From positions 45,941-109,940 of the forward strand of contig JBEKJC010000005.1 of the NCBI GenBank assembly GCA_050011435.1: DNA of 64,000 bases. The letters run 5' to 3'. Below the pieces are notes generated by a model. It made no database searches. It was given only the letters and a program-made list of their open reading frames with translations, and was not told the DNA's origin. The position numbers and the translations under genes were made by a program. Origin of the DNA: Candidatus Binataceae bacterium (GTDB taxonomy: Bacteria; Desulfobacterota; Binatia; Binatales; Binataceae). Positions 9,550-40,256 of this stretch are shown here, piece by piece. Numbering within the stretch: position 1 is the stretch's first letter; every line of letters starts with the position of its first letter.

Positions 9550-9645
9550 CCTAAACCAACACACTCGAGCGCGGGCGCCATGCGATTGTTGACAGCGCGC
9601 TCCTCCCGCCGTGGAAATGGCCGACTGGAATCGAGGGAGTACGCG

Positions 9646-11160: not shown

Positions 11161-11285
11161 GGCGTTAAGTGTAACCGAGGCTGGTGCCCGAATCATTCAT
11201 ACACTAACCATACCCTAACGAGTTAATTAACAGACGCGCGCGCGATCAATGGGGGAATATTAATAAATTGTTACGCGTGAAGATT

Positions 11286-15583: not shown

Positions 15584-16681
15584 CTATTTCGTCGATACGC
15601 CGGAGGATTGCGCCGAACCATCGGCAGGCGAAGTTGACGACGTCCCCGATGATGCGTCAGTGGAAGCGGTCGCCGCTACGTCCTTTGCTGCGGCTGCCGC
15701 CGGTTTGGTAACGGCGGATTGCGCGGATTTGGCTCGTGGAGCAGACGTAGGCTTCGGTAAAGCGGCTGGCGCGGGTTTGGACATTGCGATCGAAGCAGGC
15801 CTTGATGCGGAGGTCACGGGCTGCGAGGCCATCCGCGACAGCGGTTTGCTCGGCGCCTTCGATTGCGACTTCACCGGCGGCGGCACGGATTTGGCCGCGG
15901 GCTTCGGCGCGGGCGCGGACTTCGCGGCCGCCTGGTGGGCGTCGCGCCACAAGGCAATTCCACCCAGCAGCCCATCCTCGTTGCTGATAATTCGAACTCC
16001 CGCGGGGAGCTTGAAAGTCACCAATCGACTGTTGCCGCCGCCGATATACAATCGATCGTAATTGAAAGTCGCCTGGAGTTCGGCGATTGCCTCCTGCAGC
16101 AACTTGCTCCATTTCTTGCGCCCCTTCTTCTCGAGCGCACGTTCACCGAGTTCATCCTCATAAGTCTTGCCGTCATGAAACGGATGATGCCCCAGTTCGA
16201 GATGCACCCGCGTGCCGTCGGCGAACAGCACCGAGCCGAACCCGGTTCCGAGCGTGATCACCAACTCAAGACCGTGGCCAGTGGCGCAGCCGAGTCCCTG
16301 GATGTCGGCGTCGTTGGCGAGGCGCACCGGTTTCTTCAGCTTGAGCTCGAGCGCACGGCGGAGATCGAAGCCGACCCAGCCCTTGCCGAGATTGGGAGCG
16401 CTGTAAACCATCCCGTGCTTGACCACCCCGGGAAATCCCATCGAGACGCGGTCGAAACCGGGTTGGGCCTTGGCCAGCTTGCGGACGATTTCGATTATGT
16501 CCTTGGGCCGCGCACGCCTGGGCGTAGCGATACGGGTGCGTTCGTTCAGGGGCTTGCCGGCCGGATCGAGTGTCAGCGCCTTGATTCCGGTGCCACCGAT
16601 ATCGACTGCGAGCGTGCGCGGCGTTTTCACGGATTTCTTGCCGGCGGAATCGACAGCCGGTTTTGCGTTGCTCTTTTTCAT
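15584..16681 (-). CDS. ppgK: ROK-family polyphosphate glucokinase with ~130-aa Ala/Pro/Ser-rich C-terminal extension
   Basis: LAVDIGGTGIK, LANDADIQGLGC and HLELGHHPF are ROK/PPGK motifs. GAGGAG lies 7 nt before ATG 16681. The tail is low-complexity (PAPKPAAKSVPPPVKSQSKAP...). Confidence 0.75.
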   Translation of the reverse strand: MKKSNAKPAVDSAGKKSVKTPRTLAVDIGGTGIKALTLDPAGKPLNERTRIATPRRARPKDIIEIVRKLAKAQPGFDRVSMGFPGVVKHGMVYSAPNLGKGWVGFDLRRALELKLKKPVRLANDADIQGLGCATGHGLELVITLGTGFGSVLFADGTRVHLELGHHPFHDGKTYEDELGERALEKKGRKKWSKLLQEAIAELQATFNYDRLYIGGGNSRLVTFKLPAGVRIISNEDGLLGGIALWRDAHQAAAKSAPAPKPAAKSVPPPVKSQSKAPSKPLSRMASQPVTSASRPASIAMSKPAPAALPKPTSAPRAKSAQSAVTKPAAAAAKDVAATASTDASSGTSSTSPADGSAQSSGVSTK

Positions 16682-16854
16682 GGTGGCGACGCTCCTCTCA
16701 TTGTGGCGGCAAGTCCCCTTCAGCCAGCCGGAAATCGCGCTATCCGTGGCGCGCCATGGGAGCTTCGTTGTACCCCTACCCGGTCCGCCCCGCACGCAAT
16801 CGACTTCAACTGAAATGCGCCCTTTGACCGCAGGCAGTCAATCGGCCTTCATGC

Positions 16855-17688: not shown

Positions 17689-18561
17689 CTATGCGATCCA
17701 CGCCTTGGCCATCGTCTCGAGCTCATGCTCGTACTCGTTGGGCCCGAGCTTCTCCGGGAACAGGATCAGCCGATGCGCCCCAGCCTCCTGGTAAGCCGCG
17801 ATCGTCCGCTTCGGATCACCGCCCTGCGTCACGGGCGCATATATCGTGATTTCGAGCTTGCTGAAGTCGCGGCCTGCCTCGGCGCACATCTTCTTGAGCT
17901 TCACGAGCTCCGCCACCAGCTGCTCCGGCGGGACCCCGAGCGGCGCCCAGCCGTCGCCAATCGCGACCGTGTCCCGCAGCGCGCGCTCCATGCTCGGACC
18001 GATGCCGCCCGCGCCGACGTGGACCGGCGGATGCGGTTTGCGCGCGGGCTTGGGATTGCTTTTGACCGCGGGGAACTTGATGAACTCGCCGTCGAACGAG
18101 GCTTCGGGCTTGGTCCACAGCTCCTTCATCGCGTTGACGTACTCACGCGTGATCGCCCAGCGCCGTTTGAAATCGACGCCCATGATTTCGCTTTCATCGC
18201 GCAGCCAGCCCGCACCGATTCCGAAGATGAAGCGGCCGCCCGAGTAATGGTCGAGCGTCGCGATCACTTTCGCCAGGATCAGCGGGCTGCGCTCGGGCAC
18301 GAGGCAGATGCCGGTGCCGAGGCCGATGCGCGTGGTCGCAGCCGCCGCCAGCGTCAGGCCGACGAACGGATCGATCATGTGCGCGTATGGCTCCGGAATC
18401 TCGCCGTCGGGCGACAGCGGATACCGCGTTTTGTGCTTCACCGGCAGAATCGGATGCTCGGGCAGGTAGAAAGATTCGAAGCCGAGCGCCTCGCACTTTT
18501 TGGCGACGGCGGCGGGATCGGCGGTGTAGGTTGCAACGAATGCCAGGACTCCAATTTTCAT
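17689..18561 (-). CDS. LLM-class F420-dependent oxidoreductase (luciferase-like monooxygenase family)
   Basis: MKIGVLAFVATY..., FYLPEHP, GIGAGW and a TIM-barrel LLM signature. Confidence 0.8.
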   Translation of the reverse strand: MKIGVLAFVATYTADPAAVAKKCEALGFESFYLPEHPILPVKHKTRYPLSPDGEIPEPYAHMIDPFVGLTLAAAATTRIGLGTGICLVPERSPLILAKVIATLDHYSGGRFIFGIGAGWLRDESEIMGVDFKRRWAITREYVNAMKELWTKPEASFDGEFIKFPAVKSNPKPARKPHPPVHVGAGGIGPSMERALRDTVAIGDGWAPLGVPPEQLVAELVKLKKMCAEAGRDFSKLEITIYAPVTQGGDPKRTIAAYQEAGAHRLILFPEKLGPNEYEHELETMAKAWIA

Positions 18562-18788
18562 TTTGCATTCCTCTCTGTTTCAGTGATTGACGCTTTTTTC
18601 AGTGCTGGACGCTCGCGATGGCTCGGATAGGGGGCTAAGTTCTGCGGTAACAGAAAGCGCGAGCGATTTGAGACTTGTACGCGGTTTTTTCTCAAATTTC
18701 ACCATCAATCAGTGCGCTGGCGCTCACAGCCCCCGGGGGCTTGGCCGGCTGCCCGAGCATCGCGAGCGTCAATCCCACGATGGGAAGT

Positions 18789-18810
18789 TTGAAACCTTGT
18801 AAGGTTTCAA
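18789..18810. promoter_or_regulatory. palindrome TTGAAACC-N6-GGTTTCAA (copy A), ~230 bp upstream of the LLM start
   Basis: Perfect 8-bp arms. One of three related palindromes upstream of consecutive minus-strand units. Confidence 0.4.
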
Positions 18811-18865
18811 CGCCCGAAAGAAATCATAGTTTTGCGTTCTTCAACAACTCTCTTCTCGCTCTGCC

Positions 18866-19267
18866 TCAGGTCAGGAAGACTTCGCGAATCAGGTTGGTGT
18901 CGTTGTATTCGCGTCCCTCGGCGATCAGGTCGCCCTCGAAACGCAGGAAGAAATTGTAGCGTTGGCGATAGCGGCGCCCGTTCATCGCGGTCGTATCTGC
19001 CTCCGCGGTGGCAGCGACGAAGTCCCCCTCGGCAATCACCGTCTCGAGCCGCAGTTTGAGGCCCTCCGGGAACAGCCGCTTGAGGAGCGTGCATTCGGTC
19101 ATCGCGAAATTCTTGCGCCCCTCGATCGGCGGAAACTCGCGCAGCGCCGAAACGATCTCGAAGCGAAAATTCTCGGCAATCAGATCCTCGAAGACCGCCG
19201 GGTCGACCGCGTTTAGGTTTTCGAGAAATCTGATCGCGCGTAGCTTTTGTTCGGCTAGTGTCACCAT
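18866..19267 (-). CDS. NTF2-like / SnoaL-like small protein
   Basis: ~133 aa with an NTF2-fold-like composition. The start was chosen at MVTLAEQ. An alternative start at 19324 would place the upstream repeat inside the coding sequence. Confidence 0.5.
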   Translation of the reverse strand: MVTLAEQKLRAIRFLENLNAVDPAVFEDLIAENFRFEIVSALREFPPIEGRKNFAMTECTLLKRLFPEGLKLRLETVIAEGDFVAATAEADTTAMNGRRYRQRYNFFLRFEGDLIAEGREYNDTNLIREVFLT

Positions 19268-19375
19268 GATTGACGCTCGCGATGCTCGATACGTGGCTAA
19301 GTCTTGCTTAAGGGTCGCATGCACTTGGCACGGCCGTCGAGATCATATGCGCTCCCTCTTCCAGCAATGGGGAGT

Positions 19376-19397
19376 CTGAAACCTCGTGAGGTTTCAG
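19376..19397. promoter_or_regulatory. palindrome CTGAAACC-N6-GGTTTCAG (copy B), ~110 bp upstream of the NTF2-like gene
   Basis: Perfect 8-bp arms. The surrounding ~85 bp is similar to copy A. Confidence 0.4.
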
Positions 19398-19452
19398 TAA
19401 ACTATAGGTTTTGCGCTCCGCAACCACCCTCCCCGCTCTTTCGGTCCGTGCC

Positions 19453-19929
19453 CTACTTCCAGCCGAAGAAGTCGCGGGCATAAACGAATTTCCCGACGCC
19501 GCCCGCGCGCGCAGCCTGCTCGTCCACTTCCTGATCGCCCACCATCGTCGAGCCCTTGAGATCGACTCCGTGGATCTCCGCCAACTCCAGGATCATGCCG
19601 CCCTTGGGTTTGCGGCATTGGCAGCCGTCGGCATCATCGTGCGGGCAGATTTGCCATCCGGTCAGAATATCGCCCAACTGGCGGTCGAGGTCGAGGATCG
19701 CGGCCTCGACCTGGGCCAATCGAAAGCGCCCGCGCTTGACGCCGGCCTGATTGGTCACGACGAACATCAGATGGTCGTGGATCGGGGCGAGCTTTTCGCG
19801 CACGCCCGGCAGCAGTGTGACGGTTATGTTGCCTTGCGCGTCGATCGGGAGCTGGCGGGTCTCGTCCATCGCGACGAGCGTGCCGGCCAAGTCGAAAAAG
19901 AGCGCGATATTGCCCGCGTCGTGTGGCAT
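19453..19929 (-). CDS. HAD-IIIA hydrolase, D,D-heptose 1,7-bisphosphate phosphatase (GmhB)-like
   Basis: LFFDLAGTLV (DxD-type motif I region), VVTNQAG, the Zn-binding CPHxxxDxCxCRKP motif, and MVGDQEVD. Confidence 0.7.
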   Translation of the reverse strand: MPHDAGNIALFFDLAGTLVAMDETRQLPIDAQGNITVTLLPGVREKLAPIHDHLMFVVTNQAGVKRGRFRLAQVEAAILDLDRQLGDILTGWQICPHDDADGCQCRKPKGGMILELAEIHGVDLKGSTMVGDQEVDEQAARAGGVGKFVYARDFFGWK

Positions 19930-19932
19930 CGC

Positions 19933-21339
19933 TCAGTCACCGTTGCGCCAATCGGCATGGTCGCGCACGTGGGCAAAGACTTCGTCGAGAATCGAGATTC
20001 CGGCGTCGGCCTGCTCCTCGGTGATCACGAGCGGCGGGTTGATGCGCACGCGCGGGAAATAGCCCATGAGCAAGAGCCCGCGCTTGAGCGATTCGGTGAA
20101 GACCAGCTCCATGACCTTGCGGCCCAGCTCGCGCCGGGACTTGCGATCGCGCACGAGGTCGAGACCGATCAACAGGCCGCGTCCGCGTACGTCACCGAGA
20201 AATTCGTATTTCTCTTGCAGCTCAAGCAGCCGCTTGAGCATCACGGCACCGACCTTACGCGAATTCTCGACGAGCTTTTCCCGCTGGATCGTCTTGATTG
20301 TCGTCGCCAACGCCGCGGCCGCGAGCGGATTACCGCCGTAGCTCGAGGACGACGCGCTGGGCTTGGCGAACGGCTCGGCCTTGCCGATTTCATCGCTCAT
20401 GAGCACGCCCGAAATCGGAAAGCCCGAGCCCATGCCCTTGCCGACGGTGACGATATCTGGGGTCACGCCGCTGTGATCGACGCCCCACCATTTGCCGGTT
20501 CGACCAAAGCCGGTGATCATCTCGTCGGCGATCAGCAGTGCGCCGTTATCCCGCGCGACCGACTTGATCGCGGGCAGCCAATCGTCGGGCGGAATCACGT
20601 TACCGGCAGTACCCTGCATCGGTTCGGCGATCACTGCGGCGATCGCGCCGGCGGAGGAATTCTTGATCTGCTTGCGCGCGAATTCGACGCAATAGAGCCC
20701 GCAGTCCGGGTAGGTCATCTTGAACGGGCAGCGGTAACAGTCGGCGTAGGGCACCTGGTAACGACCGCCCGGCAGCGGCCCATAGCCCTGCTTGGATTCA
20801 TCGCCGATAAGCCCGAGCACGCCCATGGTCTTGCCGTGGAAGCCGCCCCAGAAGCTGACCACCTCATCCTTCTTGGTCACGGACCGCGCGAGCCTGAGCG
20901 CCGCTTCGACCGCCTCGGCGCCGCCGCTATACAGATGCGCGCGCTTCAGGTTGGCGGGCGCCACCTCGCTGATCAGCTTGAAGGCCTCGACGCGCTCGCG
21001 CGTCGCGAACGTCCCGACCATCAGGCGCGCCGCTTGTTTGGAAATCGCCTCGGCCAGCGCCGGATGTCCATGACCGAGGCTGGCGACCGCGACGCCAGCG
21101 AAGAAATCGACGTAGGTGTTGCCGTCGGCATCGGTCAAGGTCGCGCCGTTACCGTACTCAAAGGCAACACCCGCGAGCAGCGAGATCCGCTGGCGGCCGG
21201 GCGCGATATAGCGCTGCTCTTCGGCGAAGATCTCGCGCGATTTGGGGCCGGGCACCGGGGTTACGATTTTCGGCAGTTTGGCCTTGGCGGCCGCCCCGTC
21301 GTTAACGCGTTTTGAAGTTGAAACTTGCGCCGTCCTCAT
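19933..21339 (-). CDS. class III (omega-type) aminotransferase, PLP-dependent
   Basis: GGFHGKTMG, LLIADEMITGFGRTGKWWG and TVGKGMGSGFP, with the PLP-binding Lys. ATG 21339 is preceded by GGAG. Confidence 0.85.
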   Translation of the reverse strand: MRTAQVSTSKRVNDGAAAKAKLPKIVTPVPGPKSREIFAEEQRYIAPGRQRISLLAGVAFEYGNGATLTDADGNTYVDFFAGVAVASLGHGHPALAEAISKQAARLMVGTFATRERVEAFKLISEVAPANLKRAHLYSGGAEAVEAALRLARSVTKKDEVVSFWGGFHGKTMGVLGLIGDESKQGYGPLPGGRYQVPYADCYRCPFKMTYPDCGLYCVEFARKQIKNSSAGAIAAVIAEPMQGTAGNVIPPDDWLPAIKSVARDNGALLIADEMITGFGRTGKWWGVDHSGVTPDIVTVGKGMGSGFPISGVLMSDEIGKAEPFAKPSASSSSYGGNPLAAAALATTIKTIQREKLVENSRKVGAVMLKRLLELQEKYEFLGDVRGRGLLIGLDLVRDRKSRRELGRKVMELVFTESLKRGLLLMGYFPRVRINPPLVITEEQADAGISILDEVFAHVRDHADWRNGD

Positions 21340-21545
21340 CTCCTCATCATCCGTATGATCTTCCGCATGGCGCGCCAACCTTTTTTTCCGAAATGCTGGC
21401 GGCGCCGATGACCCGTAAGCACTGTCGTGCAATCGAGCGCAAGTCAAGTAGTGCTTAGGGTTCCGCCAACCGAGGGGGAGCAAGTTCCGGTCACAACGAA
21501 GGGCTCAAAATCGCCAGACGCTGCAAACTCGAAAGCAAGAGGCTC

Positions 21546-21568
21546 TTGAAACCTTTGAAAGGTTTCAA
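21546..21568. promoter_or_regulatory. palindrome TTGAAACC-N7-GGTTTCAA (copy C), ~210 bp upstream of the aminotransferase
   Basis: Perfect 8-bp arms with the same half-site as copies A and B. Confidence 0.4.
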
Positions 21569-21609
21569 ACCTCCCACGGTGAACCGGCGGGGCGCAGGGG
21601 TAGCGCGAT

Positions 21610-22455
21610 TTACACGGTGAGGTCGCGCATCGCCGGATGGCGGCGCAGGTGGCGCAGCGAACGGCGTGAGATCGCGCGGGCCGCCTCGGCGCGTACCCGG
21701 CTGAAGCTCGGCCAGTCGTTGAAGTCGATGATCGAGAAGCTGTCGCCCTTGAAGATCGCGTCGCCGCCCCAGACTTCCAGGCCGAGCGCCGACGCCGCAA
21801 TCGAGGTCGAACGATTGAGCGTACGCGTTTGCGCGTCGGTAAGATGAGCGCCGTTCTCTATAATCGCCGCAAAATATTCGCCGCCGCTCACGCCGTAGAA
21901 CTTGACGACCTCGCCGACCACCTCCTGCTGCACGAAGGCGAGTTGCACCCCGCGACGGTTAAAACGCATCAGGGTGGCCTCGAGGTGTTCGAGTCCCTCG
22001 ACCCGCTGAACGTCGAGCGGACCCAGTGCATGCAAATCGCCGCGCTTGACGTACATCGGGGAAGAAAGATCGATCGTGCGCAATGGCTTCAAGTCCAACG
22101 GCACCGCGGTATGTACGAGGACGCCCTCCGGCACCGGCACTCCGGCGCGCATCAGGCCGGCGCCAAGCAGATCGCGATAGCAGTTGCGGATCGCGAGCGC
22201 GGAGTTGATTACCACCGCACCGGTCTCTTCGGCCGCCGCAAGGCGCGCCAATCCGTGCGGCCCCTGGCACATCGCGAGCACTAGATGGGGCACGGGAAAC
22301 TCCCGCGCGGCAAAGCTGGCAGCGTCCAGCGCCGTCGCCTGCGCACCCGACGCTCGCAAATGATCGAGTACCGAGTCGAGAATCGCGGTGTCGGCCTCGA
22401 CCTTGCCCGGCGAATATTCCGGTTCGCGATAGACTCCCATCACCTGGATTTTCAT
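21610..22455 (-). CDS. ATP-grasp domain protein (RimK/CofF-like ligase fold)
   Basis: ~280 aa with a pre-ATP-grasp N-domain and a central YVKRGD...VQQEV...FYGV layout. RBS GAGGA before ATG 22455. Confidence 0.5.
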   Translation of the reverse strand: MKIQVMGVYREPEYSPGKVEADTAILDSVLDHLRASGAQATALDAASFAAREFPVPHLVLAMCQGPHGLARLAAAEETGAVVINSALAIRNCYRDLLGAGLMRAGVPVPEGVLVHTAVPLDLKPLRTIDLSSPMYVKRGDLHALGPLDVQRVEGLEHLEATLMRFNRRGVQLAFVQQEVVGEVVKFYGVSGGEYFAAIIENGAHLTDAQTRTLNRSTSIAASALGLEVWGGDAIFKGDSFSIIDFNDWPSFSRVRAEAARAISRRSLRHLRRHPAMRDLTV

Positions 22456-22495
22456 CGAATGCTCCGGTCCTCGCAGTGAGCCCGCAACAGCCGCA

Positions 22496-23227
22496 TCAGG
22501 GCCGCCCGCCCTGGTTTGCGACTAATGCGCGCGCCGCGTCGAGATCTGCCGCCTCGTCGACGTCGATCACACCCGTCAGCTCGATCCCGGCAATCCTCAT
22601 GCCTTCACCGATCAGCAGCGCCAGATACCGCCGCAGCGCATCCAGCCCGGCGGATCGGGCCTTGTCGCCGAACGCAAATATCCGCGTCGAGAAAAGGTAA
22701 ATACCCGCGGTCACCAATGCAGTTTCATGCCCCCCGAGACGGCTGATAACGCCATCGGCTGCCACTTCCGCAAACAGCGGATGCCGATCGCCGCGCCATT
22801 TTACCACGCCGAGTGCGCCGTCGAGAGCGCCCGGACGCGCGGGATCGGTAATTTCGAGCGCATGGTTGAGGAAGCGCGTCAATTCTGCCGACGCTATCAC
22901 CGCATCGACGGTCGTCATCAGGAAGCGCCCCGGCGCGAGACGTTCTCCCAGCGCGAGCAAGGATTCCATCGAATTAGCCGTGTCGCGCACGCAGATTTTC
23001 AGGTCGGGCGGCATCACCAGTCCGCGATCGCGAATCATCTGAGCGGTCTCCGAATTGACGATCGCATGCACCGGGCAGGCTCCCAGAGCCGCCAGCGCGA
23101 GTGACTGCCGCACCAGCAGCGTCTCGCCGCCGATCACGACCAACGGCTTGGGCACGCCGCCCGACGCGGCGCGCAGGCGCTCACCTCGCCCGGCTGCGAT
23201 AATCGCGCCGCTTAGTCCCGGTACCAT
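22496..23227 (-). CDS. sugar/alcohol-phosphate nucleotidyltransferase (NTP_transferase family)
   Basis: The N-terminal GAIIAAGRGERL glycine-rich loop typical of nucleotidyltransferases. ~240 aa. Confidence 0.7.
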   Translation of the reverse strand: MVPGLSGAIIAAGRGERLRAASGGVPKPLVVIGGETLLVRQSLALAALGACPVHAIVNSETAQMIRDRGLVMPPDLKICVRDTANSMESLLALGERLAPGRFLMTTVDAVIASAELTRFLNHALEITDPARPGALDGALGVVKWRGDRHPLFAEVAADGVISRLGGHETALVTAGIYLFSTRIFAFGDKARSAGLDALRRYLALLIGEGMRIAGIELTGVIDVDEAADLDAARALVANQGGRP

Positions 23228-23955
23228 TTCAGATGCTCCAACCCCGCCAACGTATCAATCGTGAAATCCGCGACTCCGTCGGCCGCGCCCTCGTTCGCGC
23301 CGTTAGCGTCAGAATGCCCCAGCCAGATCGCCGTGATTCCGAGCTTGCGGGCCGGGACGCAGTCCTTGCTTAACGAATCACCCACCATGGCGGTTTCAGC
23401 CGGCAGCGCACCTAGTTGTTCGAGCGCAGCAATGAAGAGACCCGGCTCGGGCTTGAATATTCCAATTCGGGACGAATCCGCGATCGCGCCGAAGAATCGC
23501 TTCAGATCGGCTTCGGCAAGAATGTTCTCCAGGTTTCCATAAAAATTCGAGACCACCCCCATCCGAAAACGGCCCGAGAGCGCGCCCAGCACCTCGCGGC
23601 TGATAGCGAACCCCTGGCGCGATTCGGCGACGAACGATTGCGTTATCCAGCCCGCGACTTCGTCCAGACGCATCCCACCGGCAGCCGCGGCGAGATTCTC
23701 GCGTAATTCCTCGGAACCGTGGCGCCCCAAAAAGCCGATTTGCAGACGCACCAGGTAATCCACCAGTTCGACCAATCCGTAGCCTGCAAGCGCTCGCGTC
23801 GAACGATAGGCGATGCGCGTCGCGTGGTCGAAGCCGTGGTCGAGTTCGGCGCGGGTCAGGTTGATACCGGCGGCGCGGTAATGCGCCAGAAAGCGGTCAA
23901 GCCAGTGGCGCGGATAGTCCAGCGTGCCGCCGAAATCGAACAGAATCGAGCGCAT
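23212..23955 (-). CDS. HAD-family hydrolase (phosphatase)
   Basis: ILFDFGGTL is motif I (DxG) and MVGDSLSKD is motif IV. Confidence 0.7.
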   Translation of the reverse strand: MRSILFDFGGTLDYPRHWLDRFLAHYRAAGINLTRAELDHGFDHATRIAYRSTRALAGYGLVELVDYLVRLQIGFLGRHGSEELRENLAAAAGGMRLDEVAGWITQSFVAESRQGFAISREVLGALSGRFRMGVVSNFYGNLENILAEADLKRFFGAIADSSRIGIFKPEPGLFIAALEQLGALPAETAMVGDSLSKDCVPARKLGITAIWLGHSDANGANEGAADGVADFTIDTLAGLEHLKWYRD

Positions 23956-24182
23956 CGTCGGCGAGAGTCTAACAGCAAATCGACCGTGGTCTCTACAATC
24001 CGCGGCTGACGATCGCATGCGACGGCGAGGATTAACGGCAACTTAACCTGCTCGCACTGGGGGGTCGTATGTGATTCTATGTACGGGATGCCCACCGGAA
24101 AAACCGTTAGAAAGTTACAGAATTATTGTGGCGTCGTTACATTGACTCAGCGGTCAGAATCACTTAAAAACCTGGTTCTAAA

Positions 24183-25361
24183 TTGACCGACTTGATTGAA
24201 ACCGCATTGATTTGTGCGCCTTCAAGGGCGCATGAAACTATCTTCGGACGCCCGTTACTCGAACGGCTGATGCTGCTTTGTTCGCGGGTCGGCGTTCGCC
24301 GCTTCATCGTCGAAGCGGATGCTTCCGGCAACGAGCACACCCGCGCCGCCCTCGGCAGTTTCGGCTCCAGTCCTCAGGTCACGATTGTCGATTCGATCAT
24401 GGCAGCCGGAAACTGGCGCAATGAAGTGGACCCGTCGGCGCCCTGCGTGGCCTTTCGTGGCAACCTGGTGATGGCGCAGTCGCAACTGCGGCGCGCGCTG
24501 GCGGATTACGGGGAGAATCCCGGCCGCGAATTGCGCGTCGTCAGCACCGACGACGATCATGGCGGCACGATCGAGGTCGGGTCGCTAAGCGCAATTTTGA
24601 ATGGCAATGGAAACGACGACGACGCGATCATCCAATCCCCGTCGGGCTACCTGCCGTTTGCGCTCAACGGCCGGCCCGAGGATCGTCACGAAGCCGAACT
24701 GCGGCTGGCCAAGTCGGTTCGGGTCGAAAGCCTCGAGACCGATGCGGTGCTCGCGCGGCTGCTCGACCGGCGGCTTTCGTGGCGGCTGAGCTATCGGCTG
24801 GCGCGCACCCGCGTGATGCCGAATCACGTGACGCTCGCGAACACCGCATTGGGCTTCGGCTGCGCCGCGATGCTGGCCTCGACCAGCTACTGGATACGGC
24901 TGGTCGGCGCCCTCCTCTTTCTGGTTTCGGTGACCCTCGACGGCGTCGATGGCGAATTGGCGCGGCTGCGTATGGTCGAATCGGAAGCCGGGGCGAAGCT
25001 CGACGTGCTGACCGACAACATCGTGCATGTCGCGATATTTATCGGGCTGATGATCGGCTGCTATCGTGGCAGCCACAGCACGGCATACTTCTACCTCCTG
25101 GCAATACTCCTTGGAGGATTCGGCGTCTCGGCGTTTGTGGTCAATCGCGCCCTGAATTTAAGCGGCGAACATGCGCAAAAGTGGATTGGCGCGGTCGAGC
25201 GGGCTACCGGACGCGATTTTGCCTACCTGGTAGTGGTCCTCGCGCTGTTCAACTGGCTTCCGATCTTCGCGTGGGGAGCCGCATTTGGTTCATGGATATT
25301 TGCGCTCAGCCTCTGGTGGCTGACGAATCGGCGCCGGGGAAACGCTGACGTGCGGGTCTAA
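24183..25361 (+). CDS. CDP-alcohol phosphatidyltransferase-family membrane protein with degenerate nucleotidyltransferase-like N-domain (IPCT/DIPPS-like architecture)
   Basis: The C-terminal membrane domain carries [10 protein letters not shown]...D, the CDP-OH_P_transf motif. The N-terminal ~180 aa are soluble and resemble an NTP-transferase fold but lack the Gly-rich loop. TTG start. Confidence 0.65.
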
Positions 25362-25396
25362 TACCCGTCTCAGCCGGCGCGCAGCAAGGAGGGTTT

Positions 25397-26722
25397 GTGA
25401 AGAAGCCGCGTATTCTTCTGGTTCAACCGACCACCGTTCATCTCGACGGCACCCCGCACAAGACGCGCTGGCGTCTGATTATGGGGTTGATGATTCCCCT
25501 GATGGCGGGCCTGACTCCAGACGACTTCGACGTCACATTGTGCGATGAACGGCTCGAAGATCTCGATTTCGATGGCGGCTGGGAGCTCGTCGGCATGACC
25601 ACGACGATCGGTGCGTCCCTGCGCGCATACCAGCTCGGCGATGAGTTCCGCAAACGCGGGATACCGGTCGTAATGGGGGGCTTTCACGCGACGTTGCAGA
25701 CCGAGGAGGCACTCAAGCATGCCGATGCAGTCGTGCAGGGCGAAGCCGACCTCGTGTGGGAACCGCTACTGCGCGACTGGCAGGACGGCAAACTCAAGCA
25801 GGTCTATAAGGCCGACAAACTCCACGATTTGAAAGGTCTGCCGCGCCCGCGTCACGAGCTGCTCAAACTGAACAAATACCTGTTCAAAGCGGTGCCGGTG
25901 CAGGCCAGCCGCGGCTGCCCTTATCGGTGCTCGTTCTGTGAGATTCCGGTCTTCTACAACGGCAGCTATCGGACGCGTCCGGTCAGCGAGATCGTCGAGG
26001 AAATCAAACAGGTGATGGCGGTGACCGGTTTTCGCCGGTTCCAGTTCATCGACGACCAGATCACCGGCAAGCACAAGTTCGCCAAGGAATTATTCCGCGC
26101 GCTGGCGCCGCTCAATATTCGCTTCTCGTGCCTGTGGACGGTCAACTCCAATCACGACGAAGAGATGCTCGAGCTGGCGGCCAAGGCGGGCGTATTCCAC
26201 GTCAACATCGGGGTCGAATCGATCAGCCAGGACAGCCTGCTGTCGATGAACAAGATTCAGAATCACACCAAGGACTACAAGAAACTGCTCAAGCGCCTCG
26301 AGCATTACGGGATTTACTACTCGCTCAACTTTCTCTTCGGGCTCGAGGACGACCATCCGCAGATTTTCGACGACACGCTTAAATTCCTGCACGAGGTCAA
26401 GGCGCCCGAGGCGTTCTTCAATACGGTGACGCCGCGCAAGGGCACGCCGATGCGCGATCAGCTCGAGGCCGAGGGCCGCGTGATCATCCCCGACGCCGAC
26501 ATGTACACGAACAACTTCCGCTGCATGTTCGTGCCGAAGAACCTCTCACCCCAGCAGGTCGAAGAGGGCGTCTGGCGCTGCACCAAGGAATTCTATTCGT
26601 TCAAATCGATGTTCAAACGGCTGCTGATGCCGCCGGGAAAATTCACCTGGCAGGGCCTAACCGAGAACATGCTGTTCTGGTACGGCGCCAAGCGCCAGGT
26701 CGATCCCGTCGATTACTATTAG
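25397..26722 (+). CDS. B12-binding radical SAM protein (class B rSAM-like)
   Basis: N-terminal cobalamin-binding Rossmann-like domain (ILLVQP...GMTT), then SRGCPYRCSFCEI, the CxxxCxxC motif. GTG start with AAGGAGG upstream. Confidence 0.85.
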   Translation: MKKPRILLVQPTTVHLDGTPHKTRWRLIMGLMIPLMAGLTPDDFDVTLCDERLEDLDFDGGWELVGMTTTIGASLRAYQLGDEFRKRGIPVVMGGFHATLQTEEALKHADAVVQGEADLVWEPLLRDWQDGKLKQVYKADKLHDLKGLPRPRHELLKLNKYLFKAVPVQASRGCPYRCSFCEIPVFYNGSYRTRPVSEIVEEIKQVMAVTGFRRFQFIDDQITGKHKFAKELFRALAPLNIRFSCLWTVNSNHDEEMLELAAKAGVFHVNIGVESISQDSLLSMNKIQNHTKDYKKLLKRLEHYGIYYSLNFLFGLEDDHPQIFDDTLKFLHEVKAPEAFFNTVTPRKGTPMRDQLEAEGRVIIPDADMYTNNFRCMFVPKNLSPQQVEEGVWRCTKEFYSFKSMFKRLLMPPGKFTWQGLTENMLFWYGAKRQVDPVDYY

Positions 26723-26811
26723 GAAATTACCGGTGCGGTTAGCCTGATTGGGCAGCCGCACCGGCGAACAACCTCAGACGCTCGAGCTCAGACTCTCGAG
26801 CCAATTGAGCG

Positions 26812-27186
26812 TCAGCCGGCGTTCGCGAGGCCGAGTTCACGCGGACGGTTGTGCTCGTCAACGTGGATCACGGTGGGTACATGGCGGCGGGCGCGAACCT
26901 CGTCCATCGGCGCGAAGGTCGCGACGATGATGATATCGCCAGCCTTGCCGCGCAGGGCCGCAGCGCCATTGAGTGCGACCTCGCCGGAGCCGGCGGGCGC
27001 CTCGATCGCGTAAGTTTCGAGCCGTTCGCCGTTGGTCACGTTCCAGACGTGAACCATCTCGTTTTCGATAATCCCGGCCGCTGCCAGCAGGTTGGTATCG
27101 ATTGCGATACTGCCCTCGTAGTCAGGGTCCGCGCCGGTCAGGTGCAGGCGATGAAGCTTGGATCGAAGCATGATGCGCATGGCCAA
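26812..27186 (-). CDS. panD: aspartate 1-decarboxylase
   Basis: MLRSKLHRLHLTGADPDYEGSIAID carries the pyruvoyl-forming Gly-Ser site. ~120 aa. Confidence 0.9.
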   Translation of the reverse strand: MAMRIMLRSKLHRLHLTGADPDYEGSIAIDTNLLAAAGIIENEMVHVWNVTNGERLETYAIEAPAGSGEVALNGAAALRGKAGDIIIVATFAPMDEVRARRHVPTVIHVDEHNRPRELGLANAG

Positions 27187-27312
27187 AAATTACTCCTCAC
27201 ATTCTGCACGCCGCATTCAAATCTCGCGGTCGCGCGATTTGTTTGATGAAGAACCCTGCCCTCACCCGCGTTCGCTGCGCGAACTTGCCCTCTCCCTGGA
27301 CAAGGTGAGGGG

Positions 27313-28170
27313 TTAAGACTGGGACGCGGGCGTCAGTACGACGTTGTCGATGAGCCGGGTCTTGCCGACGCGCGCCGCGATTGCGACCACGACCGCCCGA
27401 TCGAGTTTCTCCATCGGCTTAAGCGTTTCCGCATCCACCGCGCCGACGTATTCGATCTCCAGGCCCGGCGTGCGTTCGAGCACCGCCCGCGCGACGTCCG
27501 CGAGCTGCGCTGTGGTTCGTGCGCCTGACCTGACGCATTCATCAGCCGCCCGCAGCGCGCGGCTCAACGCGAGTGCCCGCTGACGCTCTTCTGGCGAGAG
27601 GTAGGCGTTGCGCGAACTCATCGCGAGGCCATCGGCTTCGCGCACCGTCGCTACTGGGACAATCTCCAGGTCGAAATTCAAATCGACCACCATCCGCTGG
27701 ATCGCGCGCAATTGCTGAAAGTCCTTCTCGCCGAACAACGCAAGGTGCGGCTTTACGATATTGAAGAGCTTGGCAACGACCGTCGTGACGCCGCGGAAAT
27801 GGCCCGGGCGATGGTCGCCGCATAGCCCCTTGGTCACCTCAGTCGCCTCGACCCAGGTCTGCGAGCCCGCCGGAAACATCACGTCGGGTTCGGGCGCGAA
27901 CAGCACGTCCACCGGCACCGTGCGCATCAGTTCGCAATCGCCCTCGAAGTTGCGCGGATAGCGCGAAAAGTCCTCGTTGGGGCCGAACTGCGTCGGATTT
28001 ACGAACAGCGAACTTGCAAGGTGACTGGCACGTTTGCGCCCCTCACGCATCAGTGTGAGATGGCCCTCGTGCAGGAAACCCATCGTCGGCACGAACGCGA
28101 GCGTCTCCCCACGCCGACGCGCGTCCTCAGACCAACGCTGCATGTCCGCGGGCGAGCCGATAATCTCCAC
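27313..28170 (-). CDS. panC: pantoate--beta-alanine ligase
   Basis: FVPTMGFLHEGHLTLM is the HIGH motif region. Typical PanC length from the GTG start at 28170. Confidence 0.9.
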   Translation of the reverse strand: MEIIGSPADMQRWSEDARRRGETLAFVPTMGFLHEGHLTLMREGRKRASHLASSLFVNPTQFGPNEDFSRYPRNFEGDCELMRTVPVDVLFAPEPDVMFPAGSQTWVEATEVTKGLCGDHRPGHFRGVTTVVAKLFNIVKPHLALFGEKDFQQLRAIQRMVVDLNFDLEIVPVATVREADGLAMSSRNAYLSPEERQRALALSRALRAADECVRSGARTTAQLADVARAVLERTPGLEIEYVGAVDAETLKPMEKLDRAVVVAIAARVGKTRLIDNVVLTPASQS

Positions 28171-32877: not shown

Positions 32878-33630
32878 ATGCGCCCCATGTCAGAAGCGAA
32901 AGTCGCATTGATCACGGGCGCCGGCCGCGGTATTGGCCGCGATATCGCGCTCAGGATGGCTCGGGAAGGATACGCGTGCGGACTGATTGCGCGCACCAAG
33001 TCGCAGCTCGACGAGACCGCCGAGCTGATTCGTCAGGCCGGCGGCAAAGCGGTCGTCACGCCGACTGACGTCTCAAAACGCGATCAGGTGGCTGCCGCCG
33101 TCGCCACAGTGGAGCGCGAACTCGGCCCCATCGCGGTGCTCATCAACAACGCCGGCGCCTACCTGCGCAAGCCGTTTGCTGAAATCACGGAAGAGGATTT
33201 CGACTTCCAACTCAAGGTCAACTGCTACGGCCCGTTCTTCTGCACTCAAGCGGTAGTCGCCGGGATGGCCGAGCGTGGCGCCGGCACCATTATCTTCGTG
33301 CTCGGATCGGAGACGCGCGGCGGCCCCGCGCAGTATGCTGCCTACAACGCGTCGAAGGTGGCGCAGCGCGCGGTCGCCGAATCCGTCGCCTACGAATTTA
33401 TGCATCGCGGCGTCCACGCGGTCGCGCTCGACGTCGATGGGGCGGTTGGACTGCCACGCGTGACCGACGCAGCGCACGACGAGGATCCTGATCACTTCGT
33501 CTCGACTGAAGCAATTTGTAGCGAAATCATACACGTAATCAATCAGCCGCGAAATGCGTGGACCTTCGCCATCGATTTGCGGTCCTTCTTCCAATGGCGT
33601 CCGCGGGTCGCGGCCAAGAAAAAGGCCTGA
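32878..33630 (+). CDS. SDR-family oxidoreductase
   Basis: TGAGRGIGRDIA is the cofactor-binding motif, with a YNASK catalytic motif. Confidence 0.85.
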   Translation: MRPMSEAKVALITGAGRGIGRDIALRMAREGYACGLIARTKSQLDETAELIRQAGGKAVVTPTDVSKRDQVAAAVATVERELGPIAVLINNAGAYLRKPFAEITEEDFDFQLKVNCYGPFFCTQAVVAGMAERGAGTIIFVLGSETRGGPAQYAAYNASKVAQRAVAESVAYEFMHRGVHAVALDVDGAVGLPRVTDAAHDEDPDHFVSTEAICSEIIHVINQPRNAWTFAIDLRSFFQWRPRVAAKKKA

Positions 33631-35036
33631 CGTGCCCCGAGTCCGCCCGCGCATCGATACGCTGACGGTGATATGGTCTTCACCGCTGGCGTGCCGTTAT
33701 ACTTCGGGCGCGTCAGTTGTGATTCGACGCCGTCATTCAGGGTCGGGGTGTGGCGCAGCCTGGTAGCGCACACGCTTGGGGTGCGTGTGGTCGCCGGTTC
33801 AAATCCGGCCACCCCGACCAACAATAAATCCTTTGTTTTCAAGTAGTTAGTGCACTGACCGCGCGGTCGACCGCCCGCAGGTTCCGGCGATTGTGCCCAA
33901 TTTTGTGCCCTCCCCCCCTCGTAGCCAGAAATATCCGTGTTTTTTGCGGTGCGCTCCAGGGTCGCGATGGCCTCGCGCCGGGCTTGCACGCGGATGTGAG
34001 CGTAACGGCCAAGCATCCGGTCGCTCACGTGCCCGGCCAGTTGCCGGATGGTCTCGACCGACACGGTCGCGTTCTCCGCAAGACGGGTGACGAACGTGTG
34101 GCGCGCATCGTAGAAGCGGCACGTGACCGCGACCTTTCGCCGTGCGGTTTCAAATGCGCTTTTGTAGCTCCACTGACCCATGGGGCGATTCAGGTCCACG
34201 TCCCAGATCAAAGATTTACGGCTGTTGCCTGCCAAACCCACCCGATGAAACGGGAAGACGTAGTTGTCGGGCCCGGTCTCGGGAAAGCGCCCACGCCAGA
34301 TGGTAAGCGCTGCGCAGGCGCGCCTGGTGAGAGGAATGACGCGGCCGGTGCCACCCTCGGTCTTGGATCGCGACACCACGATCTCGCCTTCGCTGATTGC
34401 GCCATCCGTCCAGCGCAGGGCCAGGTCACACCAATGGAGCGCCCGGCTCTCGGACGGTCGCAGGCCCGCATCCAGCGACAACACGAAAAACGGATACAGG
34501 ACCGGCGACGGGCTTGCGGCAATGGCCGCGAGCAGCTTGTCTTCCTCTTCGAACGAAAGAGCGCGTCCGGCATCGGTCCTTTCTCGGAGAAACCGAACTC
34601 GACCGCCAAGGGGCGACCAGCAGTCGCAGTGCTTGAGAATCTGCCTCAACGTCGCCACTTCGCAATTTATGCTTCGAGCGGAGAGCCGCTCGCCAAGGCG
34701 TTTCCTCTGCAGTGCCGCGATATCGTTGATCGTAATATCCGACACCAGCCTGCTACCGAACTCGCGCACGAGCTTGCGCGAATATTGTTCGTAATAAACT
34801 CTGCCGAGGGGTGTGAGGGCGCTTTTGGATGCGAGCCACTCCTTGGTGGCCAGCGCGAATAGGGGCAAGCGTTCACGTTTGGAGATGCGGTTGTAACCCA
34901 ATTCGAGGTCGCGTCGGCGCGCCCGTTCCGCTTCGCGCGCGACGGTCTTCGAGTTGGTTTTTGCCGAGTCCCGTATGAGCTGCCCTTGGAAGAGGAACTT
35001 GAACCAATACGTCTCGCCTCGTTTATAAACGCTCAT
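33543..35036 (-). CDS. int: tyrosine-type integrase (phage integrase family); the ORF has no stop until 33543 and runs antisense through tRNA-Pro
   Basis: N-terminal SAM-like domain (MSVYKRGETYWFKF...). Catalytic R...HxxR (ARHTFVTRL)...H (LAGHVS)...Y (LGRYAH) around residue 345. RBS GAGAGAGG before ATG 35036. The functional C-terminus is probably well upstream of 33543. Confidence 0.85.
   Translation of the reverse strand: MSVYKRGETYWFKFLFQGQLIRDSAKTNSKTVAREAERARRRDLELGYNRISKRERLPLFALATKEWLASKSALTPLGRVYYEQYSRKLVREFGSRLVSDITINDIAALQRKRLGERLSARSINCEVATLRQILKHCDCWSPLGGRVRFLRERTDAGRALSFEEEDKLLAAIAASPSPVLYPFFVLSLDAGLRPSESRALHWCDLALRWTDGAISEGEIVVSRSKTEGGTGRVIPLTRRACAALTIWRGRFPETGPDNYVFPFHRVGLAGNSRKSLIWDVDLNRPMGQWSYKSAFETARRKVAVTCRFYDARHTFVTRLAENATVSVETIRQLAGHVSDRMLGRYAHIRVQARREAIATLERTAKNTDISGYEGGRAQNWAQSPEPAGGRPRGQCTNYLKTKDLLLVGVAGFEPATTRTPSVCATRLRHTPTLNDGVESQLTRPKYNGTPAVKTISPSAYRCAGGLGARQAFFLAATRGRHWKKDRKSMAKVHAFRG
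33590..33635. repeat. 3' end of the SDR gene; a second copy lies at 48283-48335
   Basis: CGGGTCGCGGCCAAGAAAAAGGCCT is identical over 25 nt, and the flanking TTCCAATGG...GACGT is also similar. Confidence 0.7.
33744..33820 (+). tRNA. tRNA-Pro (anticodon GGG), 77 nt including CCA
   Basis: Folded manually: 7-bp acceptor CGGGGTG/CACCCCG, D-arm GCGC-AGCCTGGTA-GCGC, anticodon arm CACGC-TTGGGGT-GCGTG, T-arm GCCGG-TTCAAAT-CCGGC. Confidence 0.85.
33891..33911. repeat. arm-type-like direct repeat TGTGCCCAATTTTGTGCCCT just inside the left end of the island; a second copy lies at 61086-61106
   Basis: A 20/21-nt exact repeat found near both island ends in the same orientation. It contains an internal GTGCCC-N6-GTGCCC direct repeat. 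Confidence 0.6.
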
Positions 35037-35067
35037 CGTCTTTCCTCTCTCCGTATCTCACGCCATC

Positions 35068-35278
35068 TCACGCCGCCCGACTGCTCGCCTCGGCCAGGTA
35101 GCGACGAACCTCGGCATCGAGCACAACGACTCGACGCCCCAGGTGAGCCGCGCGCAGCCGGCCACGCTTTACTTCGAGCCGCAGAAAGGGGGACGGACAC
35201 GCCCAAGCTGCGCGCCAGTTCCTCGAGCGTCCAACCGAGCTTCGGGCTGTTCGATTTCATCACCGCCTCGCTTTCCAT
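35068..35278 (-). pseudogene. xis: excisionase/AlpA-like HTH DNA-binding protein, frameshifted at a C5/G5 run (35188-35192)
   Basis: Frame 1 reads MESEAVMKSNSPKLGWTLEELARSLGVSVP. After a -1 shift the frame reads FLRLEVKRGRLRAAHLGRRVVVLDAEVRRYLAE. Together they make a complete excisionase-type HTH. Sits directly upstream of int. Confidence 0.55.
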
Positions 35279-35418
35279 AGCGTTACCGTCCTGGCCGTGC
35301 CACTTCGTTGCGCCGTTGTGAGCCGATTTCATGACCTGCACCTCATAGTTGTTACGTTGCATGCAGTTTTGATAGCACACGTCGGTGCGGCCATGCAAAC
35401 GTCCCGAGTGTGCCCGGT

Positions 35419-36117: not shown

Positions 36118-36440
36118 CGCTTCTTCCCCTTGGCCTTGAGCTCCTTGCGGAAAGCGCGATAGGCGGCGAGTACCTGCTCCTCGCCGGCTTCCTTGGGCTG
36201 GATATCGGACGGCACTTTGCCGGCGACGAAGTAGAGCAGGTCGGCTTCGAGGTCGAGTTCCCTGGCGAACTGCTCGATGAGATAGCCACGCGGCGGATGG
36301 CGCAGATTGTGTTCGAGGTCGTTCAGGTACGGCGCCGATATTGGTCGCCCGTCTTCCATCTTGATGCGCGCCGCGAATTCGCGCTGAGTTAGCTTCGCGC
36401 GCTTGCGTCCCTCCGCAATCAGCTCTCCGAAGGTCTTCAT
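36114..36440 (-). CDS. XRE-family HTH transcriptional regulator (ImmR-like)
   Basis: FGELIAEGRKRAKLTQREFAARI matches a Cro/C1 HTH. Overlaps immA by 4 nt. Confidence 0.8.
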   Translation of the reverse strand: MKTFGELIAEGRKRAKLTQREFAARIKMEDGRPISAPYLNDLEHNLRHPPRGYLIEQFARELDLEADLLYFVAGKVPSDIQPKEAGEEQVLAAYRAFRKELKAKGKKR

Positions 36441-40253: not shown

Positions 40254-40256
40254 CGC

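Follow-up and report, generated by a model that had tools for sequence, protein, structure and literature searches.

A conserved seven-gene cluster of Binataceae and its relatives beside hopanoid genes: a possible head-group pathway based on CDP-alcohol chemistry

In a 64-kb stretch of DNA from an uncultured Candidatus Binataceae bacterium of soil, which as a whole is called the window below, seven genes at positions 19453-26722 encode a CDP-alcohol phosphotransferase (F), a radical SAM protein (G), a nucleotidyltransferase, an ATP-grasp enzyme, a class III aminotransferase and two proteins of the HAD superfamily. These genes are a conserved unit, whose co-localisation in Binataceae goes far beyond chance, and relatives of F in Thermodesulfobacteriota are found beside hopanoid genes in all seven loci compared. 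Since the relatives stand beside hopanoid-lipid genes, the cluster probably builds a phosphate-linked head group on a hopanoid or a hopanoid-associated lipid, and not a soluble osmolyte. The explanation we favour, to which we give about an even chance of being right, is that of a hopanoid-associated pathway which would link a polar head group by a phosphodiester at the membrane, most likely to a bacteriohopanepolyol or to a lipid whose synthesis and export go along with those of hopanoids. In kind, we take the system to be one of hopanoid or polar-lipid head-group biosynthesis via CDP-alcohol chemistry.

Layout and conservation of the cluster

The cluster is organised as two divergent operons, in which five genes lie on the minus strand, transcribed in the order HAD-IA, nucleotidyltransferase, ATP-grasp, aminotransferase and HAD-IIIA, and two genes, F and G, lie on the plus strand. 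A first-pass annotation, made from the DNA letters alone, had placed seven adjacent genes of these kinds here, and all of them are present, with their families confirmed by Pfam and NCBIfam. The features are as follows, together with one gene of the flank.

17689..18561, minus strand: F420-dependent LLM-class oxidoreductase, a possible accessory gene whose membership is uncertain (TIGR03619, 244 bits, cutoff 166.9)
19453..19929, minus strand: HAD-IIIA protein, 158 amino acids (aa) (TIGR01662, 65.3 bits)
19933..21339, minus strand: class III (omega-type) aminotransferase, 468 aa from the ATG at 21339 (Pfam Aminotran_3, 330.7 bits)
21610..22455, minus strand: ATP-grasp enzyme, 281 aa, without a Pfam family
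22496..23227, minus strand: nucleotidyltransferase, 243 aa, AAGRGERL...PKPL motif intact (NTP_transf_3, 41.5 bits)
23212..24018, minus strand: HAD-IA protein, 268 aa as open reading frame (ORF), true start possibly M22 at 23955 (Pfam Hydrolase, 55.4 bits; TIGR01549, 38.8 bits)
24019..24182: intergenic region separating the two divergent operons
24183..24737, plus strand: N-terminal cytosolic domain of F, residues 1 to about 185 (F as a whole: 392 aa, 24183-25361)
24738..25361, plus strand: membrane CDP-alcohol phosphotransferase domain of F, with six predicted helices
25397..26722, plus strand: G, putative class-B-type radical SAM protein, 441 aa, with a B12-binding-like N-terminal domain (Radical_SAM, 69.8 bits)

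The HAD-IA and nucleotidyltransferase genes overlap by 16 bp, and G begins 36 bp past F. The flanks of the cluster in the window are unrelated housekeeping genes, namely panD, panC, panB and coaX downstream, and SnoaL-like, F420-dependent LLM oxidoreductase, FdhD, ROK kinase and phosphodiesterase genes upstream. A search of 18500-27500 for riboswitches and other RNA families gave only two sub-threshold chance matches and no cobalamin riboswitch, and a scan for promoters and terminators gave nothing above shuffled controls, with no sigma-70-like consensus in the intergenic region.

With the proteins of the window we searched 80 species-representative Binataceae loci, and the 61 having at least 9 kb upstream of F were used for all counts of layout. 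The complete seven-gene layout is kept in 51 of these 61 loci, with the identity of F going down to 50%. Five loci carry only the HAD-IA, nucleotidyltransferase and ATP-grasp genes opposite F-G, the aminotransferase and HAD-IIIA genes being missing, and in another five F-G stand alone, beside prfB, GST and grpE-dnaK-dnaJ. The aminotransferase and HAD-IIIA genes are an accessory pair, present in 51 of 61 loci; as to the aminotransferase, which had been counted among the tailoring enzymes, its class III membership stands, but with HAD-IIIA it forms only an accessory module, missing in 10 of 61. What surrounds the cluster varies by clade, with GroEL in Candidatus Binatus soli, panDCB, or LLM-GFO/IDH-TetR-hpnH, and since the layout is kept while the flanks change between clades, the seven genes travel as a unit. 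The orthologues are co-localised and not scattered, and the candidate cluster which the first-pass annotation had proposed is a conserved functional one, complete in most of the family's loci.

Hopanoid and lipid genes are already met around the cluster in Binataceae. A true hpnH (381 bits, cutoff 225) lies within 10 kb in 18 of the 61 loci, an IolG-like GFO/IDH dehydrogenase gene within the same distance in 22, and a few loci have a MlaC gene between HAD-IA and F. A homologue of the F420-dependent LLM oxidoreductase adjoins the cluster in 33 of 61, and in the Binatus clade this gene stands between HAD-IIIA and GFO/IDH-TetR-hpnH (L069, 4431-5282). Reviews assign no gene to the reductase which turns ribosylhopane into bacteriohopanetetrol, and the LLM oxidoreductase could be this enzyme.

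Relatives of the cluster beside hopanoid genes in Thermodesulfobacteriota

The next relatives of G outside Binataceae are only about 40% identical to it and are named generically 'B12-binding domain-containing radical SAM protein'. When metagenomes were scanned with these relatives, 78 of 80 loci were without any cluster gene, and the wider family of radical SAM proteins of about 440 aa is uninformative on function. The other two loci (L162 and L127) have an F-like gene directly upstream and a nucleotidyltransferase gene directly downstream. A search with the F-like protein of L162 led to a family in Thermodesulfobacteriota, with members in Syntrophales, in Syntrophobacteraceae and in a metagenome-assembled genome (MAG) labelled Syntrophobacter fumaroxidans, the last being L170. 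L162, L127 and five further members of this family, selected mostly for the length of their contigs, are the seven Thermodesulfobacteriota-type loci considered here. Modules of the window cluster recur in them at 32-58% identity, and the F-like genes stand beside hopanoid genes in seven of seven, with hpnH in five and true hpnJ in two. The arrangements are the following.

L162: F-like, G-like, nucleotidyltransferase, hpnH, squalene synthase, MlaC (hpnM-like), LPG_synthase_TM (hpnL-like) and OEP genes, collinear
L171: same order as L162, with an additional MMPL (hpnN-like) gene, collinear
L172: MlaABCDEF, F-like, G-like and nucleotidyltransferase, convergent with hpnN-like, OEP, hpnL-like, hpnM-like, squalene synthase and hpnH
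L174: G-like divergent from F-like; hpnH, hpnB, hpnN-like, hpnL-like, hpnM-like, LytB and polyprenyl synthase; no nucleotidyltransferase
L175: F-like and nucleotidyltransferase beside hpnN-like, OEP, hpnL-like, hpnM-like, squalene synthase, PagL and hpnH; no G-like gene
L173 and L170: F-like beside an operon of hpnJ, HAD-IA, nucleotidyltransferase, ATP-grasp, class III aminotransferase, GFO/IDH and hpnL-like genes, headed by true hpnJ

The assignments of hpnH in the tested loci (337-515 bits, cutoff 225) and of hpnJ in L173 (703 bits, cutoff 577.6; the copies of L173 and L170 share 70% identity) are above the curated cutoffs. In L170 and L173 the identity to the window proteins is 37-38% for HAD-IA, 35% for the nucleotidyltransferase, 39-41% for ATP-grasp, 57-58% for the aminotransferase and 33-37% for F-like, while the G-like proteins of L162, L171, L172 and L174 are 39-42% identical to G. 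L174 also has an aminotransferase gene next to F-like, whose product shares only 32% identity with the aminotransferase of the window. G-like and hpnJ are never together in the seven loci and take equivalent positions. Altogether two modules can be seen, the first of F with G or HpnJ and a nucleotidyltransferase, and the second of HAD-IA, nucleotidyltransferase, ATP-grasp and aminotransferase, to which GFO/IDH and HAD-IIIA may be added, and both are tied to hopanoid genes and to genes of lipid flippases or export. The association with hopanoid genes recurs in at least five arrangements and in two phyla; by chance, a single-copy gene of a 4-Mb genome is expected within 10 kb at about 0.5% of positions.

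Two side observations concern these loci. In L173 (17156-18601) and L170 (20233-21236) the true hpnJ heads its operon with no hpnI or hpnK nearby, which suggests an alternative supply of the HpnJ substrate. In L170 (11410-15190) and L174 (246-8392) three more genes accompany the F-like and hpn genes, encoding an additional CDP-alcohol transferase of greater length (429 and 438 aa, respectively, 56% mutual identity), a radical SAM protein of small size (324 and 321 aa, 70% mutual identity) and an hpnL-like protein; this set may be a further uncharacterised head-group module.

The recurrence in another phylum bears on whether the two operons of the cluster belong together at all. That F-G and the five minus-strand genes are functionally unrelated and were kept together merely by shared ancestry in one family could be read from the five loci with F-G alone beside prfB, GST and grpE-dnaK-dnaJ, from the five more which miss the aminotransferase and HAD-IIIA genes, and from panDCB, which is also often syntenic. 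We regard this as very improbable, because both gene sets are found together again in the other phylum in another order and orientation, as F-like next to the HAD, nucleotidyltransferase, ATP-grasp and aminotransferase operon in L170 and L173 and as F-like, G-like and nucleotidyltransferase in L162, L171 and L172, and because in Binataceae the seven-gene unit persists while its flanks change.

The same neighbours also admit an unusual glycerophospholipid head group, of phosphatidyl-inositol or -aminocyclitol type, which would be co-regulated and exported with hopanoids without being attached to them. It could be made by the logic of PIPS and AIPS (CDP-diacylglycerol and a polyol phosphate, then dephosphorylation) or from a CDP-polyol and diacylglycerol. 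Proteins of LPG_synthase_TM (MprF flippase-type) and the MlaABCDEF phospholipid transport genes among the neighbours fit this idea, as does the inositol-3-phosphate synthase (MIPS) gene which lies divergent from the F-like gene in L162, and the two HAD proteins could strip a terminal phosphate as in the routes through phosphatidylglycerol phosphate and phosphatidylinositol phosphate. On the other hand, a CDP-diacylglycerol donor would need no dedicated soluble nucleotidyltransferase, and one is conserved and intact here; PIPS, AIPS, PgsA and PssA need none and, unlike F, have no N-terminal domain. Moreover, the F-like genes lie beside hpnH or hpnJ in all seven loci and not beside plsX, plsY, cdsA or pgsA-type genes, and the block of HAD, nucleotidyltransferase, ATP-grasp and aminotransferase shares an operon with hpnJ, whose sole known role is in hopanoid head groups (PMC12583986). 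We hold the glycerophospholipid explanation for possible but rather doubtful.

Encoded enzymes and other features of the window

F is a member of the CDP-OH_P_transf superfamily (PF01066, 53.8 bits, cutoff 22). Its catalytic motif D253-G-x2-D-G-x2-A-R...G-x3-D-x3-D278, at 24939-25016, is complete, and the eight residues of this CDP-alcohol phosphotransferase (CDP-AP) motif are invariant across the 18 sequences compared, which come from two phyla. F also has the family's signature R344-D-F-A-Y, and the invariant R344 and R196 would be compatible with a phosphorylated or anionic partner. The N-terminal domain is nucleotidyltransferase-like but degenerate, with the GxGxR and PK motifs gone in Binataceae and in distant relatives alike. 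Among NCBIfam models IPCT/DIPPS ranks first, followed by AIPS, PIPS and PgsA. F is below the curated cutoffs of IPCT/DIPPS (NF041135, 70 bits against 580, over residues 184-359 only), AIPS (NF040950, 58.7 against 180), PIPS (NF045883, 48.1 against 170), PgsA (TIGR00560, 29.3 against 109.1) and PssA (TIGR00473, 26.8 against 107), and hence constitutes a separate family, whose close homologues are all in Binataceae.

The product of 24183-25361 was also modelled, and a fold search with the AlphaFold model (pLDDT 79) gave as best match the bifunctional IPCT/DIPPS 4mnd (22.6, 327 residues aligned), followed by the fusion of the AF2299 domain and PIPS, 5d92 (20.4), PIPS (16.6) and PgsA (12.0). The nearest solved sequence is AF2299 (PDB 4o6m, E-value 4e-12), and since residue 176 of F aligns with residue 165 of AF2299 in the PDB sequence search, the domain boundary is the same. 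Alignment of the N-terminal domain with the true nucleotidyltransferase family by hhalign was in register and not significant (P 0.08); that the domain is nucleotidyltransferase-like is settled by the fold search, not by the profile comparison. From its motifs and fold, F is predicted to be a catalytically complete CDP-alcohol phosphotransferase of the DIPPS/AF2299/PIPS type with a non-catalytic nucleotidyltransferase-like N-terminal domain. This agrees with the first-pass description of a membrane CDP-alcohol transferase fused to a degenerate domain, and a grouping with the standard phospholipid synthases PgsA and PssA is found neither by NCBIfam nor by PDB sequence or fold comparison.

AF2299 and F both carry an N-terminal cytidylyltransferase-like domain, that of F being without catalytic motifs, and the two domains are without detectable sequence similarity. 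The domain of AF2299 is probably non-catalytic too, a point on which PMC4634129 is silent. AF2299 binds CDP-glycerol and processes no lipids (PMC4634129). Unlike F, AF2299 comes from an archaeon, and a radical SAM partner is not known for it. With IPCT/DIPPS (Archaeoglobus fulgidus AF0263, PDB 4mnd) F shares the complete CDP-AP catalytic motif, and the cluster shares with the di-myo-inositol-phosphate pathway the logic of cytidylyltransferase, phospho-alcohol transfer and dephosphorylation. They differ in that F matches the family model only over the membrane domain (70 against 580 bits), that the N-terminal domain of F has lost GxGxR and PK while the cluster encodes a separate intact nucleotidyltransferase, and that the cluster adds an aminotransferase, an ATP-grasp enzyme and a radical SAM protein and has hopanoid and lipid-transport genes as neighbours.

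This comparison leads to the soluble phosphodiester osmolyte, of di-myo-inositol-phosphate or glycero-phospho-inositol type and tailored by amination and radical SAM chemistry, which the first-pass annotation had in mind as one product. The substrates of IPCT/DIPPS and AF2299, which are nearest to F among solved structures, are all soluble, the grouping of a nucleotidyltransferase, a CDP-alcohol transferase and a HAD protein corresponds to that of IPCT, DIPPS and a phosphatase, and MIPS is encoded in L162, which makes the nucleotidyltransferase and CDP-alcohol transferase logic of the annotation plausible. We nevertheless consider a solute unlikely. The context is that of a membrane lipid (hpnH, hpnJ, hpnB, relatives of hpnL, hpnM and hpnN, squalene synthase, MMPL, MlaC and other Mla genes, LPG_synthase_TM) and not one of osmotic-stress genes, F is far from the cutoff of the IPCT/DIPPS model, and the N-terminal domain, an active IPCT in DIPPS enzymes, is degenerate in F. 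Furthermore, di-myo-inositol-phosphate is a solute of hyperthermophiles, and source titles (peat, palsa, spruce forest) suggest that the Binataceae MAGs come largely from peat and soil.

The operon partner G has the motif C174-x3-C-x2-C181 at 25916-25939, whose C-x3-C-x2-C pattern is invariant in the orthologues. It reaches no curated radical SAM cutoff (BchE 100.7 against 481, PhpK 91.5 against 600, ladderane-type 76.6 against 360), and with 81.3 bits for TIGR03471 (cutoff 577.6) and 27% identity to the true HpnJ of L173 it is not HpnJ. The nearest PDB entry is AprD4 (E-value 2e-10), an enzyme which is not known to use cobalamin. The match to Pfam B12-binding (29.4) is below the cutoff of 32.1, and cobalamin binding by G can be inferred from architecture only. 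Of the cobalamin-binding radical SAM protein announced earlier the radical SAM part is thus firm and the cobalamin part stays below threshold. A role as C-methylase finds no specific support, with G failing every curated model and holding the position of HpnJ in the sister clusters.

What sets G apart is its conservation. Over 76 Binataceae loci its identity is 87-98% (median 89%), compared with 50-84% (median 55%) for F, and G is the most constrained of 12 protein families compared over Binataceae loci. Median identities are listed below.

G: 89%
Aminotransferase: 79%
panC: 69%
ATP-grasp: 57%
F: 55%
Nucleotidyltransferase: 55%
HAD-IA: 52%

Clustering at 50% identity puts the full-length Binataceae G proteins of the library searched into one cluster, the other close matches being fragments. 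The pN/pS of G is 0.135 against 0.45-0.48 for its neighbours, and its synonymous divergence (pS 0.53) is like theirs, which together point to purifying selection; recent horizontal transfer as the cause of the conservation is ruled out by the same pS. Purifying selection on G, a putative class-B-type radical SAM enzyme, is therefore unusually strong, which suggests an important and so far unstudied function. In the lineage of Syntrophales type the G-like protein is also the most conserved of its trio (73% against 61-64%), less extremely than in Binataceae.

Turning to the minus-strand operon, the 243-aa nucleotidyltransferase is above the NTP_transf_3 cutoff of 27, its AAGRGERL...PKPL motif is invariant in 68 orthologues, and a comparison with the PDB places MurU, HddC-like proteins and IPCT closest to it, in alignments confined to its N-terminal part. 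Judging from these residues it is in all likelihood catalytically intact, which fits its earlier designation as a bona fide nucleotidyltransferase. The nearest PDB entries of the aminotransferase are GABA-type aminotransferases, and its orthologues have 468 aa.

The 281-aa protein belongs to the ATP-grasp superfamily by its fold, conserved Lys and acidic/Asn triad. K137, E178, D232 and D244-F-N246 are invariant, with D232 / D244-x-N246 as the Mg-binding triad. Asp at the middle position of this triad is typical of inositol-phosphate kinases, and Glu of ligases. Ins134_P3_kin is the sole ATP-grasp Pfam model giving any signal, a non-significant one, and the match to the inositol-phosphate kinase model PF05770 is below threshold. 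The RimK-type ligase model TIGR00768 fails as well (24.2 bits, cutoff 143.4), no meaningful match to PDB sequences was found, and NCBI lists an identical sequence, from a Candidatus Binataceae MAG, as 'hypothetical protein'. The earlier assignment as ATP-grasp ligase thus stands for the superfamily, and the protein may be either a ligase or, instead, a kinase.

By TIGR01662 (cutoff 44.6) the HAD-IIIA protein falls within HAD-IIIA in the broad sense. It is below the cutoffs of histidinol-phosphatase (TIGR01656, 83 against 84.15) and of the GmhB models NF006506 (80.2 against 178) and TIGR00213 (61.2 against 149.6), and it retains the Zn loop C-x-H...C-x-C-R-K-P of GmhB/HisB-N type. Its motif I reads FFDL[G/A]GTL, in which G, A or T stands in place of Asp+2 in the 52 of 56 orthologues that the top counts cover, Asp not being among the residues listed. 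The GmhB-like character proposed for it is therefore retained in the Zn loop and lost in the D-x-D motif I and at the model cutoffs. The HAD-IA protein (TIGR01549 cutoff 23.3; orthologues of 243-269 aa) has the motif I LFDFGGTLD, with Asp+2 missing in all 71 orthologues. With this general acid missing in both, the two are HAD proteins, as had been said, but not textbook phosphatases, and the word 'phosphatase' is only an approximation; the missing Asp+2, unusual for phosphomonoesterases, hints at a different leaving group or at a transfer reaction.

Outside the cluster the window has several features of its own. A second large B12-type radical SAM protein of 590 aa, with Radical_SAM_N2 and Radical_SAM domains, is encoded at 4458-6230 on the minus strand; it is TIGR03960-like (397 bits, below the cutoff of 462) and unrelated to the cluster. 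Polyphosphate-related genes at 7783-11196 and 15584-16795 encode a His_Phos_1 phosphatase, a CHAD-domain protein, a Ppx/GppA exopolyphosphatase and a ROK protein resembling polyphosphate-glucose phosphotransferase (107 bits, below the cutoff of 250). A remnant integrative conjugative element lies at 33543-45317, and the region 46000-60000 is an island of low GC (0.50-0.56 against about 0.62 elsewhere), probably of horizontally acquired genes for cell-envelope glycosylation. Their genes are listed here.

33543-35036: tyrosine integrase
35419-36117: IrrE/M78 peptidase
37533-40253: TrwC relaxase
40257-42083: TrwB-type coupling protein
44487-45317: rve-family transposase
46960-48261: GT9 heptosyltransferase-like gene
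48345-49985 and 54054-58447: large ORFs without family
51130-53064: PMT_2 gene
59600-60916: GT87 gene

A proposed head-group pathway and its meaning

Under the favoured explanation of a hopanoid-associated head-group pathway, the enzymes might act in the following way. A sugar or cyclitol precursor, for which an inositol type is the best guess as suggested by MIPS in L162 and by the IolG-like enzyme, would be oxidised by the GFO/IDH dehydrogenase, whose gene lies outside the window cluster and adjoins the cluster in other Binataceae; as an optional branch, the class III aminotransferase would aminate the oxidised product. The ATP-grasp enzyme would then phosphorylate the polyol in the fashion of an ITPK-type kinase or, less likely, ligate the amine, and the nucleotidyltransferase would produce the CDP-activated alcohol. 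F would move the phospho-alcohol onto a lipid hydroxyl, e.g., C-35 of bacteriohopanetetrol, with a CDP-activated lipid as an alternative donor. G, in the place which HpnJ takes in the sister clusters, would rearrange or alkylate the head group by radical chemistry, and the atypical HAD proteins would handle phosphate groups on intermediates. A CDP-activated (amino)cyclitol or polyol phosphate is our best guess as to the head-group chemistry.

The known route through HpnI, HpnK and HpnJ, with HpnL, offers a comparison. In the reviews consulted, no head-group routes are described besides those which lead through HpnI/K/J to the glucosamine and cyclitol-ether forms and through HpnO to the amino form (PMC12583986), and no roles are known in the literature for hpnA, hpnB, hpnL and hpnM (PMC12583986). 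Remodelling of lipid head groups has been proposed for two radical SAM enzymes, HpnJ and Cds (PMC13459092), and in the case of HpnJ it would consist in contracting the glucosamine ring of bacteriohopanetetrol glucosamine to the cyclitol ether (PMC13459092, PMC12583986). The relatives of the cluster resemble this route in having head-group tailoring genes in or beside hpn clusters, and in combining a radical SAM protein, putatively of class-B type, and a head-group transferase with LPG_synthase_TM (HpnL-type) nearby; in L170 and L173 a true HpnJ even shares one operon with orthologues of four window genes. The differences are that no HpnI glycosyltransferase or HpnK deacetylase stands next to the L170 and L173 clusters, whereas in Alphaproteobacteria hpnI, hpnJ and hpnK are reported to occur all together or not at all (PMC12583986), and that attachment by F would give a phosphodiester and not a glycoside.

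A more specific form of the favoured explanation can be put forward tentatively, and we believe in it with clearly less than even confidence. In the cluster and its Thermodesulfobacteriota relatives, the dedicated AF2299-like phosphotransferase would attach a nucleotide-activated (NDP or CDP) sugar phosphate or (amino)cyclitol phosphate to a bacteriohopanepolyol, which would make a new hopanoid branch with the first phosphodiester-linked 'phospho-hopanoids'; G would be a functional analogue of HpnJ, and the operon of L170 and L173 would represent an HpnI/HpnK-independent feeding of HpnJ.

Several points weigh against a hopanoid role. The 64-kb window itself holds no hpn gene, 43 of the 61 Binataceae loci have no hpnH inside 10 kb, and the hpnL-, hpnM- and hpnN-like neighbours are below the curated cutoffs. 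We know of no report of a phosphate-containing bacteriohopanepolyol, and our literature search turned up none. With Asp+2 missing in both HAD proteins the phosphatase steps are uncertain, and the roles and substrates of all the enzymes are predictions. In addition, AF2299 and DIPPS act on soluble substrates only (PMC4634129).

Every protein of the cluster belongs to a known superfamily, and no published description of their combination was found in our literature search, as the first-pass annotation had surmised; nor did the search find any link of a CDP-alcohol transferase or of inositol to hopanoids, or relevant lipid genes of Binatota. The combination comprises an AF2299-like phosphotransferase with a degenerate N-terminal domain, an ultra-conserved radical SAM partner, a new ATP-grasp family and a recurrent linkage to hpn genes.

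Hopanoids are major membrane lipids of bacteria, and their fossil products are widely used as biomarkers. If the favoured explanation is true, the cluster would stand for a new class of composite hopanoids or hopanoid-coupled polar lipids in the hpn clusters of two phyla. It would also place the AF2299-type enzymes, to which no role in the cell has to our knowledge been assigned, in a physiological setting, and provide candidate genes for the unexplained bacteriohopanepolyols of soils and peat, the source of the Binataceae MAGs.

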